A stretch of 64,000 nucleotides of DNA from a virus (Duplodnaviria; Caudoviricetes): positions 32,001 to 96,000 of IMG/VR virus record IMGVR_UViG_3300027914_001343; one strand, written 5' to 3'. The notes beneath the pieces were generated by a model. That model was not told the DNA's origin, did not search any database, and saw only the letters and a list, made by a program, of their open reading frames with translations. Below, piece after piece: positions 11,813-56,010 of this stretch (positions are counted from its first letter, which is position 1; each line of letters begins with the position of its first letter). The translations under genes were made by a program, and so were the position numbers.

Positions 11813-13480
11813 ATGTCTCAAAGAAAAGTGATCGGTCACGAATGTCGTTTTTCGGTTTTTTGCGGTAAGCCTGAAGGACAAGACGCAGACCTCCACACTA
11901 TCAAGCTTTTGACTCACTATGACGACGGCACTAAAGAGCCAACTTTCCACACCGTAAGGAATTTTAATCGCCCATTTTGGGTTACAAAGAAAGCTTTTCG
12001 AAACCACAATGACAAAAAAGAATGGGAAATGCTTGACAAAGTAAGTGAGTTTAAATCAACACAATCCAATCTTCCGCGAGCTATTGCTAATGCTCTTGGT
12101 GAATCTTGGAAGACCGGTGACGTTCGACAACTCGCAAAGAGCCCATATCTCTACGGAGCGGACATTCTGTCTACTGCTGTGATTAAGCAAACATATGCGG
12201 ACAAGTACCCCGGTCTCAGCACACCCTACACGATGGCGCCGTTTGATACGGAAACCGACGTCATCATGGGACACGGCCAAGTAATAATGGCTACGATCTC
12301 ATTTAAGGAACGCGTCTTTACAGCTGTCCAGAAATCGTTTGTTGCTGGCTTGTCTGATGTGGAACGTCGCACACACGAACTCCTCATCAAGTATCTCGGT
12401 GAATATGTTGAAAAACGCAAGATCAAATGGGAACTTCGGTTTGTTGAAACTGAAGGTGATGTGATCGTTGACACGTTTAAGAAAGCGCACGAATGGGGTC
12501 CTGATTTCCTTGCTATCTGGAATATGAACTTCGATATTCCAAAAGCTATTGAGGCTCTCGAAAATGCAGGCATCAATCCTGCCGACGTCTTCTCAAACCC
12601 AGCGGTTCCTGAAGCCTATCGTTTCTACAAATACAAGCAAGGCCCGAAGCAGAAGGTAACTGCGTCAGGGAAAGTCACACCCATCAAACCAGCTGACCAA
12701 TGGCACACTCTTTTTGCTCCTGCTGGCTTCTATGTGATTGACTCGATGTGTGTCTATCGCAAACTTCGTGTTGCTAACGGCGAAGAGCCTTCGTACGCTC
12801 TTGATGCTATCTTGAATAAAGAGCTCGGTATTCGGAAACTCAAGTTCAAAGAAGCGGACGGTTACAGTGGCATTGAATGGCACCAATTCATGCAGAAGAA
12901 CTACAAGCTCGAATACATCATCTACAACGTGTTCGACTGTGTTTCTATGGAAGAGCTCGATGAAAAGACGCTGGATCTTTCCATTGCGATGCCAATGCAG
13001 TCTGGTTGTTCTGACTTCAGTAACTTCAAGTCACAGCCAAGAAGAACTGCCGATGCACTCCATTACTTTACTCTTGCAAACGGTAAAGTATTTGGGACTA
13101 CCTGTGATGACATGACTACTGAACTTGACCAGGAGACGCTTGGTCTTGAAGGATGGATTGTTACGCTGCCAGCACATTTGGTTGCAGATAACGGACTTCG
13201 TTGTATTGAAGAAGATCCTAATCTGCGAACCAATATTCGCGCTCACGTAGGGGATTTGGATGTGTCGGCATCTTATCCTAATGGCGAATGCGTATTCAAT
13301 GTCTCGAAAGAGACCACGAAACGTGAACTCTGTAAGGTAGAAGGAGTGTCTGAGTTCACACAACGCATGCAGGGTATCAATCTGTCTGCTGGTCCTTCTA
13401 ATGCAGTTGAGTTCTGCACGACCATGTTCAAACTACCTACCTTTGGGCAGTTGCTCGAGGAGTTTACTGAGAGGCGATAA
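11813..13480 (+). CDS. family-B DNA polymerase, N-terminal half: 3'-5' exonuclease plus motif A (phiKZ gp82-like)
   Basis: ExoI FDTETD, ExoII WNMNFD, ExoIII YNVFD, motif A DLDVSASYP. Confidence 0.85.
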   Translation: MSQRKVIGHECRFSVFCGKPEGQDADLHTIKLLTHYDDGTKEPTFHTVRNFNRPFWVTKKAFRNHNDKKEWEMLDKVSEFKSTQSNLPRAIANALGESWKTGDVRQLAKSPYLYGADILSTAVIKQTYADKYPGLSTPYTMAPFDTETDVIMGHGQVIMATISFKERVFTAVQKSFVAGLSDVERRTHELLIKYLGEYVEKRKIKWELRFVETEGDVIVDTFKKAHEWGPDFLAIWNMNFDIPKAIEALENAGINPADVFSNPAVPEAYRFYKYKQGPKQKVTASGKVTPIKPADQWHTLFAPAGFYVIDSMCVYRKLRVANGEEPSYALDAILNKELGIRKLKFKEADGYSGIEWHQFMQKNYKLEYIIYNVFDCVSMEELDEKTLDLSIAMPMQSGCSDFSNFKSQPRRTADALHYFTLANGKVFGTTCDDMTTELDQETLGLEGWIVTLPAHLVADNGLRCIEEDPNLRTNIRAHVGDLDVSASYPNGECVFNVSKETTKRELCKVEGVSEFTQRMQGINLSAGPSNAVEFCTTMFKLPTFGQLLEEFTERR

Positions 13481-24920: not shown

Positions 24921-25304
24921 TTACAAAACGTGCGGGCAATTTGGTGCTACATGACAAACTGTGTTTTCATTTAGCTGCACGATGTGTGTTCTGATAGCTG
25001 GGAAATCAATTGCTACGTTATCGATTTTCGACTTCAAGGCAAATGAGATAAAAGCCAAAACTGCAGATTCTGTTTCACAGACAAGAGTGTCTTCGAGCTC
25101 GTCACTGTTAAAAGGTGTAACAATACAAGGTCCATCAGTATTACGGAAATCTGTATTGTCGACAACAACCAACAACTGATCGGCGCCTACACGAAAACGA
25201 ATTTGTCTTTCAACATAGTCTTCGCCATGTTTCGTTACTTCCTTTGATACAACCTTTGGCTGTAAACCAAAAATTGTAAGCCAATGTAAAAGCTGAGAGG
25301 TCAT
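24921..25304 (-). CDS. hypothetical protein
   Basis: ATG 25304 with AAACAAGGAAA SD. Confidence 0.6.
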   Translation of the reverse strand: MTSQLLHWLTIFGLQPKVVSKEVTKHGEDYVERQIRFRVGADQLLVVVDNTDFRNTDGPCIVTPFNSDELEDTLVCETESAVLAFISFALKSKIDNVAIDFPAIRTHIVQLNENTVCHVAPNCPHVL

Positions 25305-25365
25305 TTGTTTTTTTCCTTGTTTAAAAAAAGTTAACAGCATAAAGGGAGGGCACTTGCCCTCCCGT

Positions 25366-40182: not shown

Positions 40183-40617
40183 TTAATAAGTGCCGTCGTT
40201 GTTTGCAGCTACTACCCTAGCAAACCGACCATTCATTTCTCGTAAGATTTGACCAACAGAATAATCTTTTCCTGCATCCGTAACCTGGATGTGAATCCGT
40301 AGCTCCATTCTGTTAGAACCGAACTCAACTTCATTAGTAGTCACAGTAACGCGGCTACTATCAAAATATCTGTTGAAGTATCCAGTAAGACTTTCACTAG
40401 CTTTACTGGCTAACTTACCCATGTCGTGACCTGCCTCAGCTATGATAGCCTGCATACTTGTTACTGTGCCGGCAAAGATGTAGCTTTGGCGTGGATCAGT
40501 CTCAAAAAAATAAGCCATCAGGAAGTCGACTTTCTCAGCAGTTCCCTTAACCCAACCATTTGTGGTTAGAGTAGGAACCACTTTAATTGCATCGTCATTA
40601 GGCATGCTGTTCACCAT
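40183..40617 (-). CDS. conserved protein, possibly gp25/GpW-like baseplate wedge fold
   Basis: 144 aa. Helix-'L..YFNRYF'-strand-strand pattern (inference). Confidence 0.5.
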   Translation of the reverse strand: MVNSMPNDDAIKVVPTLTTNGWVKGTAEKVDFLMAYFFETDPRQSYIFAGTVTSMQAIIAEAGHDMGKLASKASESLTGYFNRYFDSSRVTVTTNEVEFGSNRMELRIHIQVTDAGKDYSVGQILREMNGRFARVVAANNDGTY

Positions 40618-42839: not shown

Positions 42840-42865
42840 TTGCTTTCCTCCGCCAGTTTTAAGGG

Positions 42866-44851: not shown

Positions 44852-44919
44852 TTTGCTTTTTTTTCCCTTGTTTATACACTACGTAGTGTACAGTTAAACG
44901 AAACACGATTCCCTGTACA

Positions 44920-46264: not shown

Positions 46265-48418
46265 TTAATACTGGTCAGACACCAACCGCGTCAGTTTATC
46301 GTTGGAACAATAATACCCGAGTGTTTCAAGGATCAGATAGAAAACAGAGCAGGTATCAGCCACAATCTTTCTAACGTTCATAGCTGACAATACTTCTGTT
46401 GGAATACCATTTTGCAAAATAGCTTGCTCAGGTAATTGCAAGAGCCCAATGTATTTCTTGTTGTACTTTTGCATCCACGCAGCCATACGGTTAGCCAGAT
46501 CTCGATCCTCCAAACTATCCAGCCAGGTTTTGGTCTTGCTCGGCGTATCAAGATCGGTGGCGAACTTCAGACACATATACGGCGGTTCTTGAATACTACC
46601 GTACTTAGGAGAGAACACATCTTCCCACATCGAGTAGAAAATGTAATTTGACTCCATAGGTCCCTTAGTGTAAGAAGCTGCTTGTTTAATCTGGCCCTTA
46701 CGGAAATACTCAGAACCTCCATTACGGATATCAGAATACACACTACGTTCGATATCGGCAACACGAGTGAGCATTGCTTTCAGACTGATCTTCTTACCAG
46801 CAATAACGTCGTTCATGATATCGGTCATCATTGTGGTTGCTTGTTCCATGATTCGGACAGGTGCATTAGAAGACTTCAGGTGAACGCCCTTGATCTCCTT
46901 TTTGTACTTGTCAAACAAATTACCTTCTTGGCAACCGATCAACGCAAAATAATGTTTAGCTACCTGCGTAGGAACGAAGACGTCAAACTTGAATTCGTTC
47001 TTCATGGCTATCTGATGGATACGTGCGTTCTCGATACCAAAGTTGGCTGACATTCGTGCCAACAAATGGATAATAGACTGAGCCGATAACCAAATCATTG
47101 CAGCTGCTACTGAATTAGCTTCTTGGTCAAACTTGATGCTACCACAATACCACTCCACCCAGTCTTGCACAGTAAAGATAGTAGAGTCAGTGTCTGACGT
47201 AAGCGCAGCGTGGCGGATGCTTTCAGGAAAGTAGGCAACCGAAGCAGGCATGTTATCAGTAACCCAGAACGCTTTGATAAGCAATCCAAATTCTTTAACA
47301 GTATCTGCAATACCCAGAGCAGTGAGAGCTACGTTGGCACGAGCTTCATCCGTTGCGTTCTTACCGTCGTCAGCCATACCAGGAATAACGTATAAACGTT
47401 TACCTTTCATATCTGGCGAACATATCTGCACAGCAAGATGTACATTATCTTCCGGCTGGGCTTTTAGGACTGCTACGGCATTCTCAATCTCACCTGTCTT
47501 ATAGGAAGAGATACCCTTGATGAATTTACCGACAAGTTCTGGATTGAGCTGCTTCAGGTGGTACAGATCGCCCACATATACAAAAGCTGCGCGCTGGATT
47601 GGTGTCAGGCGTTCTACCAGCTTTTTGATCCGCATCATGCGGTCACGGCTGCGCCAATATTTCTTCGTAGAGAACTTGATGCATTCCATCACTTCGTCCA
47701 CTACAGGGTATTTAATCCCATAGACGTCGATAGCTTGTTGGATCATCTCGTAATCAACATTGTTAATAATAGAAACGATGTTGTACTCAACGATGTCAGG
47801 AGACCAGTAATGTCTATTCCCGCTAAGGAACTTTTCATTATTGGCGTTACCGTAACCGGATGTTGACCGGCAATTGGATGTTAACGTACTGTGCGCAGTT
47901 CGGTTGTACAGCGGCGTTGATGGGGAGACGTGCGCACCAGAGATTGCGTTATTGCCAAGCTTTCTGTTGTTCTGTTCATTCTTCTTAATCGAATACAGAA
48001 CAACATCTTTTGCCATCTCAGCAGCAAACATTGCCTTCTTAGCTACGCCCCGCGCCTTCACGTTACCATCGATGTAGTTTACGAGAAGAGATTGAATTTT
48101 GTGTGGCGGAATGTACGTAGTCAAAGTAGGTGCTATGAGCTCCTGATTTTCCAAAGCATCTTGCAGGTATTGACCTAGCGTTCCTTCTTTCTTCACGCGG
48201 TCACCATTGTCTTCCCGTTCCAAGTAAATAATCCTCGGGTCTCTGAAGGGAAAACGACCGTCCTTTGAGATTGCATGTTCTACAAAAGCTCTGCATTCTT
48301 CAATAGGCTTATTTGTCATTGCGCTCAAATAAGTAGCAGCATCTCTCTTGTAAAACTCAAAGATCCTAAGATCCCGGCGGTATTCGTTCTTTTCGAGTAC
48401 GAATGGGTTTGCTTCCAT
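46265..48418 (-). CDS. family-B DNA polymerase, C-terminal catalytic half (phiKZ gp50-like)
   Basis: Motif B KLGNNAISG, motif C SDTDST, KHYFA and EIKGVHL. Start moved to ATG 48418 (GGAGG SD). Confidence 0.88.
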   Translation of the reverse strand: MEANPFVLEKNEYRRDLRIFEFYKRDAATYLSAMTNKPIEECRAFVEHAISKDGRFPFRDPRIIYLEREDNGDRVKKEGTLGQYLQDALENQELIAPTLTTYIPPHKIQSLLVNYIDGNVKARGVAKKAMFAAEMAKDVVLYSIKKNEQNNRKLGNNAISGAHVSPSTPLYNRTAHSTLTSNCRSTSGYGNANNEKFLSGNRHYWSPDIVEYNIVSIINNVDYEMIQQAIDVYGIKYPVVDEVMECIKFSTKKYWRSRDRMMRIKKLVERLTPIQRAAFVYVGDLYHLKQLNPELVGKFIKGISSYKTGEIENAVAVLKAQPEDNVHLAVQICSPDMKGKRLYVIPGMADDGKNATDEARANVALTALGIADTVKEFGLLIKAFWVTDNMPASVAYFPESIRHAALTSDTDSTIFTVQDWVEWYCGSIKFDQEANSVAAAMIWLSAQSIIHLLARMSANFGIENARIHQIAMKNEFKFDVFVPTQVAKHYFALIGCQEGNLFDKYKKEIKGVHLKSSNAPVRIMEQATTMMTDIMNDVIAGKKISLKAMLTRVADIERSVYSDIRNGGSEYFRKGQIKQAASYTKGPMESNYIFYSMWEDVFSPKYGSIQEPPYMCLKFATDLDTPSKTKTWLDSLEDRDLANRMAAWMQKYNKKYIGLLQLPEQAILQNGIPTEVLSAMNVRKIVADTCSVFYLILETLGYYCSNDKLTRLVSDQY

Positions 48419-48481
48419 TAAGAACCTCCGTTTGTCTAATGGCAAAAGATAACTGAGGCCAATAAAAAAAAAAAGCGGCAT

Positions 48482-48519
48482 AAAAAAGAAAAAGGTCGAG
48501 GGGATGGCAGTCCCCTCGA
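48482..48519 (-). terminator. intrinsic terminator
   Basis: 9-bp tcgagggga/tcccctcga stem followed by a long U-tract on the minus strand. Confidence 0.85.
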
Positions 48520-48821
48520 AATAACTCACAAATAGAGCAGAGCAAAAAGTTTCCAATAAGAAAACAACCATGAGGGACCATCAATAAATTCAGTAGAGAC
48601 AGCGGCTGATTCACCCAGGCCGAGCTTCATGGCGGGGTGCGGGAATCAGCCAGCTCAAGGCGAATGCGGTATTGGGAAAACAAGGAAACCCAATTTAGCA
48701 CAAATCGAATGAACCAGCCGCGTCAACCAGGCAACGTCCGCTCAAAGGAGGAAAGCGGAAAGTTAGAGTAGCTGCCAGAGCCAAGCTGCGTACTCATTGC
48801 AAAGATCCTGGTGTTCTCTGC
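48482..48821 (-). ncRNA. putative ~340-nt structured non-coding RNA with anti-Shine-Dalgarno loops
   Basis: Starts at the G of a TATG late-type motif. 5' GCAGAG pairs with 3' CUCUGC. Several stems, and it ends in its own intrinsic terminator (48482-48519). No credible ORF. Confidence 0.55.
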
Positions 48822-48851
48822 ATATTATTAGTAACAACACAATAAAAAAAA

Positions 48852-49250
48852 TTATTTTAACGCTATTGTGTAATCGTTGTACCCACCAACAGCGCAGAAA
48901 TTCTTGAAGCGCTGGATATCATCAGCAACTGCATTTTTGACAACAAGAGTCAGAGTTTGGGCACCCAGCTGGACGATCGTTTCTGTCTTGATCCATGGCA
49001 GTCCGATGATACGTGTGTTGCCGTTTTGGAAGCGCACTTTTACATAGTCGTAACTATAAGGATCATCTTCTACTGTGTCTTTCGACAAGTAAGTATAGAC
49101 TTGAGCATGGCGAGCCACAATATCGATTTGTTCTGCTGCTGCTTCGGGGTCCAAAATAGAGACCACGGTGACACCAGCAAATTCATCCCCGATAATTGCA
49201 GTAGGGTAGATGCTAAAGTTGTATGTCTTCCGTAATTCGAGTGTGCTCAT
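48852..49250 (-). CDS. conserved small beta-rich protein (phiKZ gp49 position)
   Basis: ATG 49250 with GAGG SD. Confidence 0.6.
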   Translation of the reverse strand: MSTLELRKTYNFSIYPTAIIGDEFAGVTVVSILDPEAAAEQIDIVARHAQVYTYLSKDTVEDDPYSYDYVKVRFQNGNTRIIGLPWIKTETIVQLGAQTLTLVVKNAVADDIQRFKNFCAVGGYNDYTIALK

Positions 49251-49257
49251 CTTAACC

Positions 49258-49635
49258 TCAAAATGGTAAAAGCAAAATATCATTCCCATGCATTTTTGAG
49301 TACGTGTATGGCATTACCAACTCTTGCTCATCATCATAAACAAAAATATCCAGGCGTTCAATTTCGCAAAAAATAAACATGCCAAAAGACTGTACTAGGT
49401 CCCTGACACGCGGTAGCGTGTCAGGTGTTGGCCTAGTTTTCATACGATGCAGTTCTGGCAGGGTTTTGACATAACAACTAAATGCGGCTGGGTCTGCTGT
49501 AATGCCTGTAAAAATCTGCATTATAATTTCTTCAGCATCACTCTCTTCAATTCCAGCTAACTCTTTCAAACTATTCTTTAAGAAACTTACTCTGGCTGAT
49601 GTGTCTAACAAAATACATGGTTTCATGGTAGCCAC
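49258..49635 (-). CDS. hypothetical protein
   Basis: ~122-125 aa in a tightly packed operon. Confidence 0.55.
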   Translation of the reverse strand: MATMKPCILLDTSARVSFLKNSLKELAGIEESDAEEIIMQIFTGITADPAAFSCYVKTLPELHRMKTRPTPDTLPRVRDLVQSFGMFIFCEIERLDIFVYDDEQELVMPYTYSKMHGNDILLLPF

Positions 49636-52136: not shown

Positions 52137-52171
52137 GCATAAGAGCCAGCCCGAAGGCTGGCCTCTTATAC
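52137..52171. terminator. hairpin terminator
   Basis: ataagagccagcc-cgaa-ggctggc(c)tcttat. UUCG loop on the minus strand followed by TTATGC. Confidence 0.8.
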
Positions 52172-52174
52172 TTT

Positions 52175-52445
52175 TGGTACACCCTCTATTTGGGAAATGG
52201 TCGGGTTCCTAGATCCATTTCGACTGGGGTCGGTCATTTGCAACTTTCACTATGTTGACATTCCGCTTTTAGCGACTCGGCCTCAAGTACTTGAGTTGTT
52301 TCTTTCCCCGTCCCTATCCGGTGGATGGGACTTTCTGCTTGTCGCGTTGTAATGCACCCCTGTAGTTAAACAGTTCGGCCAACGCCCGGTTGTGCGCGGC
52401 GTGACTTACCTAACTTGGCTTACAGGCACCTGATACCTGTGCTTT
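52175..52445 (-). ncRNA. putative structured RNA in the phuZ 3' region
   Basis: GC-rich, ORF-free ~270 nt with at least 9 nested stems between the phuZ stop and a terminator. Confidence 0.45.
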
Positions 52446-52473
52446 CATTAGTATTGATCACTATCTCATTGTG

Positions 52474-53502: not shown

Positions 53503-53585
53503 TTTGCTTTTCCTTGTTTATGTTGGTGTTGAAAAGATACTCACACACAAGATCTACAGTGCTGAGTAAAATTTAACCGTTTGTT

Positions 53586-55518: not shown

Positions 55519-55564
55519 TTGGAAAGTCCGTTGTATGGTTGTTTGTGTTCTGAATACAGACAAT

Positions 55565-55985
55565 CACAACAAAGACATAAAAAAGAAAATTTTCTAAAAA
55601 ATAAAAAAATATTTTTATATCAGTGTTATGATTAAGGAGTATTTTCCTAGTATCTATTAAAGGGGGCCCCCTCCGGGCCCCCTCCCTAGATAGAGTTCTA
55701 GGTTCAGTTCGTCACGCCCCCGCGTTCCTCACAGGTTTTAGTTGCATACGATAAGTATGCTAGTAAAAAAATATTTTTGAAGTAATGTTTTAGAACGAAC
55801 TATGGGGCCTTTACGGGCCCCTTATAGTGAGAAGAGTGTATAAAACCTATAAAGTAAGGGAATAATAGAGGCAGGCTTTTACGGCCTGCCAATAATCTAC
55901 TTTATGTAAGAAAAAAATAAAAGAGAAAATATTCCATAGTTTAACGGGACCGGTCGGCGCAGCTGCCGGGCTGATACTATGAGAC
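55565..55985. other. long AT-rich intergenic region with GC hairpins (candidate origin or structured element)
   Basis: A-tracts at both ends. Hairpins at 55661-55683, 55804-55821 and 55870-55890. Confidence 0.4.
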
Positions 55986-56010
55986 TTTGAATAACCGCAA
56001 GGAGATCAAC

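Follow-up and report, generated by a model that had tools for sequence, protein, structure and literature searches.

The window, that is, the whole stretch of 64,000 nucleotides analysed here, belongs to a chimallin- and PhuZ-encoding, nucleus-forming jumbo phage. On its minus strand, on which all the features described below lie, the SH3DP gene (48852..49289; Pfam PF20287, E = 2e-30) is the upstream neighbour and the gene of a family-B DNA polymerase (46265..48415; phrog_2927, E = 1e-256) the downstream neighbour of a 435-nt gap, which separates the ORF at 48852-49289 from the start of the polymerase gene at 48415. The polymerase is 59% identical to that of phage FLC9 and 52% to that of RP12. 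The SH3DP gene precedes the polymerase gene in most of 80 related loci, and the order SH3DP gene, gap of 400–900 nt, polymerase gene is found in 50 of these 80 IMG/VR loci. The gap holds a predicted non-coding transcript of approximately 340 nt (48482..48821), which extends from the G of a TATG motif to the end of a terminator U-run, both ends being placed by motif. As read from its sequence, 48482-48821 is an ORF-poor unit that runs from a predicted promoter to a terminator. An earlier note on this DNA had described the stretch as GC-rich and ORF-free; the first property holds (0.55 GC versus approximately 0.44 in the flanks), but a single minus-strand ORF of 34 aa lies wholly inside it.

The putative start site is the G at 48821 of the TATG motif (48821..48824), and relatives repeat TATG(C/T)AG-like 5' boundaries. 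In phiKZ, TATG is the late consensus of the nvRNAP, with transcription beginning at the G (PMC4666361). Some 20–30 nt before the start there is a T-run with TTATTG (TTTTTTTTATTG; 48840..48851), a presumed promoter element that resembles the phiKZ middle motif AAanTTACc, located at about -24 (PMC4666361), and that is found before the polymerase gene as well as a few further units. Late expression, as proposed earlier, is not established: the start does carry TATG, but it also carries this middle-motif-like element. The second copy of this element (48460..48473), placed before the polymerase gene, suggests that the latter has its own promoter of that type. The intrinsic terminator (48483..48519) consists of a 9-bp GC-rich hairpin (48496-48519) followed by a U-run, and immediately 3' of it lies a TATGCCG motif (48476..48482) that recurs after hairpins throughout the genome and in relatives.

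The minus strand of the region is predicted to fold with -112 kcal/mol (z = -3.8), a value that none of 100 shuffled sequences equals. The core of the fold is a long closing helix, of 12 bp in this phage, formed by the 5' arm GCGGCUGGUUCA (48710..48721) and the 3' arm UGAAUCAGCCGC (48602..48613); it is 100% paired in all seven sequences compared, with compensatory changes in 6 of 15 pairs. Three hairpins complete the structure. Hairpin 1 (48737..48759) carries the loop UUCCUCCUUUG (48743-48753), which contains CCUCC and whose inner 9 nt are unpaired with P of approximately 1.0; in relatives, the stem of the equivalent hairpin differs (GCGG/CCGC, CAG/CUG) and the CCUCCUC loop is retained. The loop of hairpin 2 (48671..48694) is UUUCCUUGUUUU (48677-48688), unpaired with P = 0.99 and the exact complement of the signature AAACAAGGA found in ribosome-binding sites (RBSs). 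In hairpin 3 (48619..48661), the loop UGAUUCCCGCACCCC (48634-48648) contains a UCCGCA-like motif common to the FLC9 group (CUCCGCAA, UUCCGCAC). Two further pairings, a 9-bp stem GGCUGAUUC/GAAUCAGCC and a 5'/3' closing helix (48816-48821 with 48537-48542), had been singled out from the single sequence. Both can be formed, the closing helix being part of the minimum free energy fold, but they are kept only as unconserved alternatives: the 9-bp stem, in which GGCUGAUUC at 48643-48651 takes up the 3' arm of the 12-bp helix (48721-48710/48613-48602), has no equivalent seen in FLC9, and it is the 12-bp helix that homology and covariation support, and no conserved counterpart of the closing helix was seen in relatives. 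Simple antisense action does not account for the elaborate scaffold, which is conserved, or for the third conserved loop (UCCGCA).

With blastn and nhmmer, the region matched nothing in the phage collection or the related loci, or else FLC9 alone and marginally, so that homology was reached by way of synteny and a covariance model. This model (R1), built from six FLC9-like elements of Burkholderia phages, matches the central domain (48593..48733; 18.3 bits) as its sole match in 646 kb (E = 6.9e-4; E = 1.2e-4 in 112 kb), over the full length of the model (positions 1-198). When the present sequence is aligned with the R1 elements, 97.2% of the cells pair and both sides have changed in a compensatory manner in 18 of 49 pairs, which is reached by none of 500 shuffles; slid alignments, used as controls, give at most 0.14 against the 0.397 observed. 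Covariation is also found in independent subgroups (26/96 and 22/80 pairs). With the FLC9 group the candidate RNA further shares its position between the SH3DP and polymerase genes, on the same strand, and the presence of hairpin loops with CCUCC and UCCUUG. Fold, model match and covariation together bear out the view of a discrete, conserved and structured non-coding unit on the minus strand, and the compensatory changes in relatives are those that the earlier note had proposed to look for.

Beyond this group, 30 of 39 non-redundant gaps contain hairpins in which UCCUU or CCUCC loops are borne by unrelated stems, compared with 19.8 ± 2.9 in shuffled sequences and 20 on the antisense strand; among these sequences the loops are retained while the stems change. 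Run with filters off on L017, L018, L021, L026, L030, L036 and others, R1 found terminator-like hairpins only, and the homology of such distant members, which cannot be aligned to R1, would rest on synteny and the order of elements. The 3' half was misplaced in MAFFT alignments with FLC9, RP12 and FLC1-1B, and likewise in those with the FLC9 group, and these were left unused. The members of the family comprise elements of the cultured Burkholderia phage FLC9 and Ralstonia phages RP12, RP31 and FLC1-1B, and of dozens of metagenomic genomes, with predicted lengths of 340–470 nt. Rfam 15 gave no match at gathering thresholds in the whole 64-kb window, and at E <= 10 on 48300-49000 it gave only snR79 and CrcZ, both at chance level and outside the structured core, the CrcZ match being a poly-A artefact; ARAGORN found no tRNA or tmRNA gene in the window. 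A group I intron was considered and rejected: no Rfam model of that class matches even at E <= 10, the upstream ORF, which ends in TAA, is an SH3DP gene in its own right, and the N-terminus of the polymerase aligns from its own ATG. In the literature searched, no paper was found on this RNA or on any anti-RBS RNA of a jumbo phage, nor was a transcriptome of this phage or of FLC9, RP12 or FLC1-1B.

The most informative property of the RNA is the relation of its loops to the start sites of the phage. De novo, two 8-mers stand out as the most enriched at -22..-3 of 153 ORFs: AAACAAGG, with 11 occurrences where 0.12 are expected, and AACAAGGA, with 10. Both are exact complements of loop 2, UUUCCUUGUUUU. 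A perfect 8-nt complement of this loop is present at -25..-1 in 12 genes, whereas permuted loops give 1.1 (a count of 12 is attained by 5 of 2000; p of approximately 0.003 in the permutation tests), and 18 genes pair with it at dG <= -10 kcal/mol, versus 2.3 for permuted loops (1/500 as good) and none in mid-gene controls. Complementarity of the loops to the RBS signature thus exceeds chance by far. Loop 1 is marginal by the same measure (approximately 57 of 2000 permuted loops are as good), and its CCUCC is a generic anti-Shine-Dalgarno sequence. Unpaired C/U-rich loops, as predicted here, and complementarity to the RBSs of several mRNAs beyond chance are features shared with the sRNAs that target Shine-Dalgarno sites (RNAIII/RsaE type).

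An extended signature, (U)AAACAAGGA(G/A), precedes approximately 15–24 genes, and its full form is restricted to some 10–15% of genes; the automatic gene calls behind such figures are crude and, for example, give an antisense ORF in place of phuZ. The carriers include PhuZ, chimallin, two RNA polymerase beta-like subunits and conserved proteins of unknown function. The predicted target in front of phuZ (phrog_4733, tubulin PhuZ) is AAACAAGGAAA at 53509..53519, an 11-nt complement of loop 2; the same sequence precedes a 127-aa ORF ending at 25304 (25312..25322), the RBS of chimallin (chmA; phrog_4795, nuclear shell protein) is AAACAAGGG (44865..44873), and an internal chmA start is preceded by AAAACAAGGAA, also a complement of loop 2. 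These four matches, all named in the earlier note, were verified. With a loop of 12 nt, a full set of 11–12 pairs is impossible without distortion. The 10-nt match that had been reported between loop 1 and an RNA polymerase gene does exist, as GGAGGAAAGC directly before an ATG (42842..42851; complementary to loop 1 plus the edge of its stem), but it is a single case and loop 1 is marginal overall. PHROG annotation of the plus-strand genes, in which a late or structural bias among signature-free genes was sought, returned mostly unknown functions.

Loop and RBS also change together from one phage to another. Counting each motif followed by N4-11-ATG on the gene strand of whole genomes, ACAAGGA prevails where the loop reads CCUUGU: FLC9 has 53 copies against 3 of TAAAGGA, G006 has 36 against 10, and G001 has 37 against 0 of AGAAGGA. 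In G002, with the loop CCUUCU, the relation is 3 ACAAGGA to 17 AGAAGGA, and in RP12 and FLC1-1B, both with CCUUUA, it is 9 and 7 ACAAGGA to 18 and 15 TAAAGGA, respectively; reversed-pattern controls give 0–5 counts. When own and other loops are assigned to genomes with a GGA core required, the observed value is reached by 2 of 7391 derangements at K = 9. This core-restricted test replaced a matrix of whole-RNA complementarity without the core, since the latter was swamped by pairing between T-runs and A-rich leaders. In the sequences compared, loop and RBS flank therefore co-vary, in about three loop types and, as the phages are related, through few independent events. This co-variation is new relative to the earlier note and is stronger support than a single sequence could give; because loop and RBS signature change together, the RNA most likely controls the translation of the genes that carry the signature.

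Taken together, these observations favour, with a probability of about one half, a conserved, structured, trans-acting RNA of approximately 340 nt that would pair with the RBSs of the phage itself, most likely repressing translation across a regulon. The covarying scaffold, formed by the long closing helix and the three hairpins, would display single-stranded pyrimidine loops, of which loop 2 (UUUCCUUGUUUU) would pair over 9–11 nt with the extended signature. Such a duplex is longer than that between a Shine-Dalgarno sequence and 16S rRNA, which makes occlusion of the 30S binding site its most likely outcome; regulon-wide repression of translation would follow, possibly with subsequent mRNA decay. 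From the sequences we infer that the region is transcribed and at what time, that the loops pair in vivo and which sign the effect has; repression is adopted by analogy, and activation, stabilisation or sorting of mRNAs would be equally compatible with pairing. Early genes as targets and silencing as the effect, both proposed in the earlier note, would likewise go no further than inference.

The sign of the effect is where the closest rival departs from repression. The same pairing could have a positive or logistic role, in which mRNAs are marked, protected, unfolded, escorted (for example, out of the phage nucleus) or recruited to ribosomes. The signature stands on essential and presumably highly expressed genes (chimallin, PhuZ, RNA polymerase subunits) and is kept by dozens of genes per genome, which is easily explained if pairing is beneficial, and the large conserved scaffold with its third conserved loop suggests a partner protein or particle. 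This reading is nonetheless fairly unlikely, given that most genes lack the signature and that, to our knowledge, nearly all regulatory RNAs paired with a Shine-Dalgarno site block initiation. An unlikely but more specific version holds that the RNA is not a repressor but the reader of a phage-specific mRNA address: its loops would recognise ACAA-, AGAA- or UAAA-GGA, its scaffold would dock on a phage or ribosomal partner, and mRNAs with the signature would thereby gain selective export from the nucleus or preference in ribosome loading. If true, the RNA would serve as a surrogate anti-Shine-Dalgarno acting in trans and evolving together with the start sites of the phage. Alternatively, the loops might not pair with mRNA at all and would act as a mimic of the 16S 3' tail or as a pyrimidine-rich site for a protein (S1 or a phage RNA-binding protein), making the RNA a decoy or part of an RNP. 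The complexity of the scaffold and the poor target specificity of loop 1 agree with this, as does the CCUCCUU of loop 1 and of loop 2 in FLC9-type RNAs, which we take to match the 16S tail core exactly. The loops, however, follow those RBS positions that are not part of the 16S-complementary core (ACAA, AGAA or UAAA). Moreover, FLC9 and RP12 differ in loop and RBS flank, while their hosts, Burkholderia and Ralstonia, belong to one family and should have similar 16S tails, all of which renders the idea improbable.

Other readings dispense with a regulon. The RNA could be the cis-acting leader of the polymerase mRNA, starting at 48821 and controlled by read-through of the terminator or by sequestration of the RBS by the anti-Shine-Dalgarno loops, with the short RNA as a by-product comparable to the phiKZ ncRNA candidates that derive from 5'UTRs. 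Its position immediately upstream of the polymerase gene is conserved, ACAAGGAG is found in the polymerase RBSs of FLC9-type phages and L021, and premature-termination products are common in phiKZ (PMC10914365). We regard this as doubtful in view of the second promoter-like element between terminator and polymerase gene, here and in relatives, the poor match of the loops to the polymerase RBS of the present phage (ACAAACGGAGG), the additional gene that separates RNA and polymerase gene in RP12, FLC1-1B and L027, and the regulon-wide enrichment and co-variation, superfluous for a cis element. It is very unlikely that the region acts as DNA (a replication origin or a protein-binding region by the polymerase gene) or is a decaying remnant: it adjoins replication genes, and the numbering of several phage records begins near it, but it is GC-rich rather than AT-rich, is framed by a predicted promoter and terminator, and preserves RNA-type helices through compensatory changes that include strand-specific G-U pairs, and the co-variation of loop and RBS has no explanation at the DNA level. 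The earlier note had also entertained expression of the plus strand, whose ACAAGGA and AGGAGGA loops would sponge CsrA/RsmA, and ACAAGGA in a hairpin loop does fit the CsrA SELEX consensus. Yet the plus strand folds worse (z = -2.1 vs -3.8), no promoter or terminator was seen on it, many conserved G-U pairs become A-C mismatches, the 2–3 GGA loops in 340 nt contrast with the many of CsrB, RsmY and RsmZ, and no such Rfam family matched. As promoter, terminator, flanking genes and G-U pairs all favour the minus strand, this alternative is rejected as extremely improbable.

In nucleus-forming jumbo phages, transcription is kept apart from translation, and little is known of the means by which these phages time and sort the translation of their mRNAs. 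If confirmed, the candidate RNA would be a phage RNA, of a family that is widespread yet absent from Rfam, that governs a whole regulon of the core genes of the phage itself (shell, spindle and RNA polymerases) through their start sites. The joint change of loop and RBS flank over tens of genes is rare computational support for a mechanism, and the natural compensatory variants UUG/ACAA, UUC/AGAA and UUA/UAAA make the hypothesis directly testable in cultured phage–host pairs.

Several known systems share part of these properties. In phiKZ and 201phi2-1, also members of the Chimalliviridae, ncRNA candidates derived from 5'UTRs and intergenic regions are likewise promoter-to-terminator units upstream of a gene (PMC10914365, PMC11512511, PMC8244752); the accessible parts of these papers describe neither this locus nor an anti-RBS role. 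The gp49-gp50 gap of phiKZ, with the same synteny, has a short promoter, a hairpin and a CU-rich tail, but it is only approximately 75 nt long and is likened by position, and the conserved sRNA005 of 201phi2-1 lies upstream of a tail gene, unlike the candidate RNA. The c4 antisense RNA of phages P1 and P7 is similar in that loops of a phage RNA occlude the RBS of a phage mRNA in trans; it measures some 77 nt and targets one operon only, icd-ant, from which it is itself processed, whereas the candidate RNA has 340–470 nt, its own predicted promoter and matches to many genes. The translational repressor RegA of phage T4 and its endoribonuclease RegB, which cuts GGAG in early mRNAs, offer a functional analogy only: they are phage-encoded devices directed at the RBSs of an entire class of mRNAs of the phage itself, but they are proteins, and the candidate RNA would act by base pairing. 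A parallel in design is found in the Staphylococcus aureus RNAIII (RF00503) and the RsaE/RoxS-type sRNAs, which also direct C/U-rich unpaired loops at the Shine-Dalgarno regions of several mRNAs, RNAIII being, in addition, a large multi-hairpin regulatory RNA of comparable build. The candidate RNA has no sequence or model similarity to them, is phage-encoded and directed at that phage's own genes, and its seed reaches into a phage-specific RBS flank with which it co-varies, over tens of predicted target genes.

The window forms part of a 149-kb IMG/VR contig (completeness estimate, 56%), which encodes chimallin, PhuZ and split RNA polymerase subunits and is therefore assigned to a nucleus-forming, phiKZ-like jumbo phage. 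Its closest cultured relative is Burkholderia phage FLC9 (DNA polymerase identity of 59%), followed by the Ralstonia phages RP12, RP31 and FLC1-1B (51-52%). The predicted RNA (ncRNA; 48482-48821, minus strand) is located within a 435-nt minus-strand gap, with the SH3DP gene upstream (48852-49289, minus; Pfam PF20287, "SH3 fold domain associated with phage DNA polymerases") and the family-B DNA polymerase gene downstream (46265-48415, minus), and thus its gene sits inside the conserved SH3DP-polymerase pair. A second DNA-polymerase-like gene (11813-13480, plus; phrog_3011, E = 2e-212) lies on the other strand, well away from the family-B gene.

All the features described in the earlier note are present in the window sequence. 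The 5' boundary of the ncRNA carries TATG (48824-48821, minus), its GC content exceeds that of the flanks, the sole ORF wholly within it on the minus strand has 34 amino acids, and its terminator is a GC-rich hairpin of 9 bp followed by a U-run. The minus strand folds at -112 kcal/mol (z = -3.8), against a z of only -2.1 for the opposite strand, and searches with Rfam and ARAGORN gave no match. Two hairpins bear the loops UUCCUCCUUUG and UUUCCUUGUUUU (loop 1, 48743-48753; loop 2, 48677-48688), both predicted to be single-stranded (P 0.99-1.0). The 5' arm of the long helix has an internal copy (GGCUGAUUC, 48643-48651), which is an alternative partner for the 3' arm (48604-48612); this pairing would use up the loop of a third hairpin (48619-48661) and could act as a structural switch, and no equivalent was seen in FLC9.

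That the ncRNA is a conserved structured RNA is supported by covariation in two subgroups and by a covariance-model match. FLC9 has a gap of 536 nt at the corresponding place, with similar blocks: a CCUCC-loop hairpin, a UUCCUUGUUU-loop hairpin, the long-helix arms, and a terminator followed by TTATGCCG. Among 80 related loci obtained by a polymerase-profile search of IMG/VR, 50 have an SH3DP-to-polymerase spacing of 400-900 nt. In the RNAalifold consensus of six FLC9-like elements, 26 of 96 pairs hold through two-sided changes, as do 22 of 80 in a second, unrelated subgroup (L030, L044, L045, L046), where the order of elements is the same (5' hairpin, CU-loop hairpin, long-range helix) and two hairpins, one with a UCCUU loop and one with a C-rich loop, lie within the long-range helix. 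The model of the central domain of the FLC9-like elements (R1) gave a single significant match in 646 kb (window plus loci); it covers the whole length of the model and lies on the minus strand at 48593-48733 (18.3 bits, E = 6.9e-4). When the window is included in a model-guided alignment of seven sequences, 97.2% of cells are paired, all seven form the 15-bp closing helix, and compensatory changes occur in 18 of 49 pairs, a value reached by none of 500 shuffles; sliding the partners by 1-3 columns abolishes the signal. R1 is a narrow model with which distant members were not alignable, and their homology rests on synteny and element order. Across non-redundant gaps, the stems that bear pyrimidine loops are unrelated in sequence and UCCUU or CCUCC is kept in the loops: 30 of 39 gaps contain one or more such hairpins (stem of at least 5 bp), compared with 19.8 +/- 2.9 in dinucleotide shuffles (maximum 26) and 20 on the antisense strand.

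The loops also match the ribosome-binding signature of the phage. A k-mer count upstream of 153 ORFs of the contig (positions -22 to -3), which made no assumption about the loops, found as the most enriched 8-mers AAACAAGG (11 genes against 0.12 expected), AACAAGGA (10) and TAAACAAG (8), which are the exact complement of loop 2. By direct scan, ACAAGG(A/G) stands at Shine-Dalgarno spacing before 24 ORFs, among them those of PhuZ, chimallin, two RNAP beta-like subunits and three conserved unknown families. The complementarity claimed for both loops was compared with composition-preserving permutations, and it proved exceptional for loop 2 (perfect 8-mer complements in 12 genes against 1.1, 5/2000 permutations reaching 12; 18 genes against 2.3 at dG <= -10 kcal/mol, 1/500; mid-gene controls, 0) and only marginal for loop 1 (about 57/2000, p ~0.03). 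The signature precedes only genes on the strand of the ncRNA (15/112 minus against 0/41 plus, p = 0.012, with a crude, automatic gene set).

The main new result is that loop and signature co-vary across phages. In eight phages, the match between RNA and gene start regions is better within a phage than between phages (own-versus-other assignment, K = 9; 2/7391 derangements reach the observed value). Whole-genome counts of motif-N4-11-ATG, for which the reversed pattern gave 0-5 throughout, follow the loop type reciprocally on the gene strand. With a CCUUGU loop, ACAAGGA and TAAAGGA number 53 and 3 in FLC9 and 36 and 10 in the relative G006, while a third such genome, G001, has 37 ACAAGGA and no AGAAGGA; G002 (CCUUCU loop) has 3 ACAAGGA and 17 AGAAGGA; RP12 and FLC1-1B (CCUUUA loop) have 9 and 7 ACAAGGA and 18 and 15 TAAAGGA, and many RP12 sites are UAAAGGAAAG, which complements the RP12 loop exactly. 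The strand bias of ACAAGGA is extreme (53:2 in FLC9, 36:1 in G006, 37:5 in G001).

As regards expression, phiKZ late promoters recognized by the non-virion RNA polymerase start at the G of TATG (PMC4666361), and TATG(C/T)AG-like 5' boundaries also occur in relatives. A T-run/TTATTG element approximately 20-30 nt upstream of the ncRNA start is similar to the middle-promoter motif of phiKZ, AAanTTACc, whose centre is near -24 (PMC4666361). Further copies of this element stand ahead of the polymerase gene, 3' of the terminator, and at a few other units; the ncRNA promoter looks, by its sequence, like that of the adjoining gene. Of the late expression formerly suggested, the TATG boundary stands; the label "late" is not warranted, given the middle-type element shared with the polymerase gene. 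After the terminator lies TATGCCG (48476-48482, minus), a motif found 3' of hairpins genome-wide, both here and in related phages. At the same place, and throughout the contig and five relatives (G001-G005), TTTATGCCG trails terminator-type hairpins; G002 has 40 copies, and the reversed control 3. Where a terminator is bidirectional, the hairpin is flanked by the motif and its inverse, and the motif probably belongs to the terminator signature of the clade.

The data directly support a conserved fold of RNA type, loops predicted to be accessible, regulon-wide complementarity and co-variation. The start sites with which the ncRNA would pair in trans belong to 15-24 genes in the contig, and FLC9-type genomes have 36-53 candidate sites; since the loop-RBS duplex (9-11 bp) is longer than the Shine-Dalgarno duplex (about 6 bp), it would block 30S binding, and the outcome would be a class-wide translational shut-off. 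That the ncRNA is a regulator that pairs with ribosome-binding sites is given a probability of roughly 0.65; for its repressive version the chances are about even, and a positive or sorting role is possible.

It is also possible that the loops mimic the 16S tail or bind a protein. The letters that vary (ACAA, AGAA, UAAA) lie 5' of the GGA core, presumably outside the stretch bound by the CCUCC core of 16S rRNA, and the hosts of FLC9 and RP12 belong to one family; for these two reasons, mimicry of the host tail accounts for the pattern less readily than direct loop-mRNA pairing does. A cis-acting leader of the polymerase gene is another possible reading. The plus-strand CsrA/RsmA sponge, offered earlier as an alternative, is rejected: numerous conserved G-U pairs, together with the promoter-like elements and the orientation of the terminator, assign the RNA to the minus, gene strand, and the plus-strand fold has a z of -2.1.

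Other candidate elements were noted. A second promoter-to-hairpin unit (55655-55775, minus), within a 492-nt non-coding block (55519-56010), has the promoter layout of the ncRNA (TTTTTTTACTAG, 11 nt, TATG), is approximately 90 nt long and G-rich (GGGAGGGGG), terminates in a GGGGGCC/GGCCCCC hairpin, and is a candidate small RNA. The non-coding stretch downstream of phuZ (52168-52450, minus) matches in position an ncRNA candidate mentioned for phiKZ (PMC10914365), which lies in the 5'UTR of gp40, directly following the PhuZ gene gp39. The syntenic gp49-gp50 gap of phiKZ (L103:12378-12578, phiKZ 40377-40577) has only 201 nt, with a short middle-promoter-like TTTTTACTT element, a GGGUACCC hairpin and a CU-rich tail, AUUCUUUCCUUUUCUUUUUU (fold z = -5.3), and may be a minimal counterpart of the ncRNA.

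Among the papers searched, none describes the ncRNA. In 201phi2-1 and phiKZ, the reported conserved sRNA sits ahead of a tail gene. The proposed class-wide shut-off is comparable in logic to T4 RegA/RegB, and the ncRNA in architecture to RNAIII of S. aureus.
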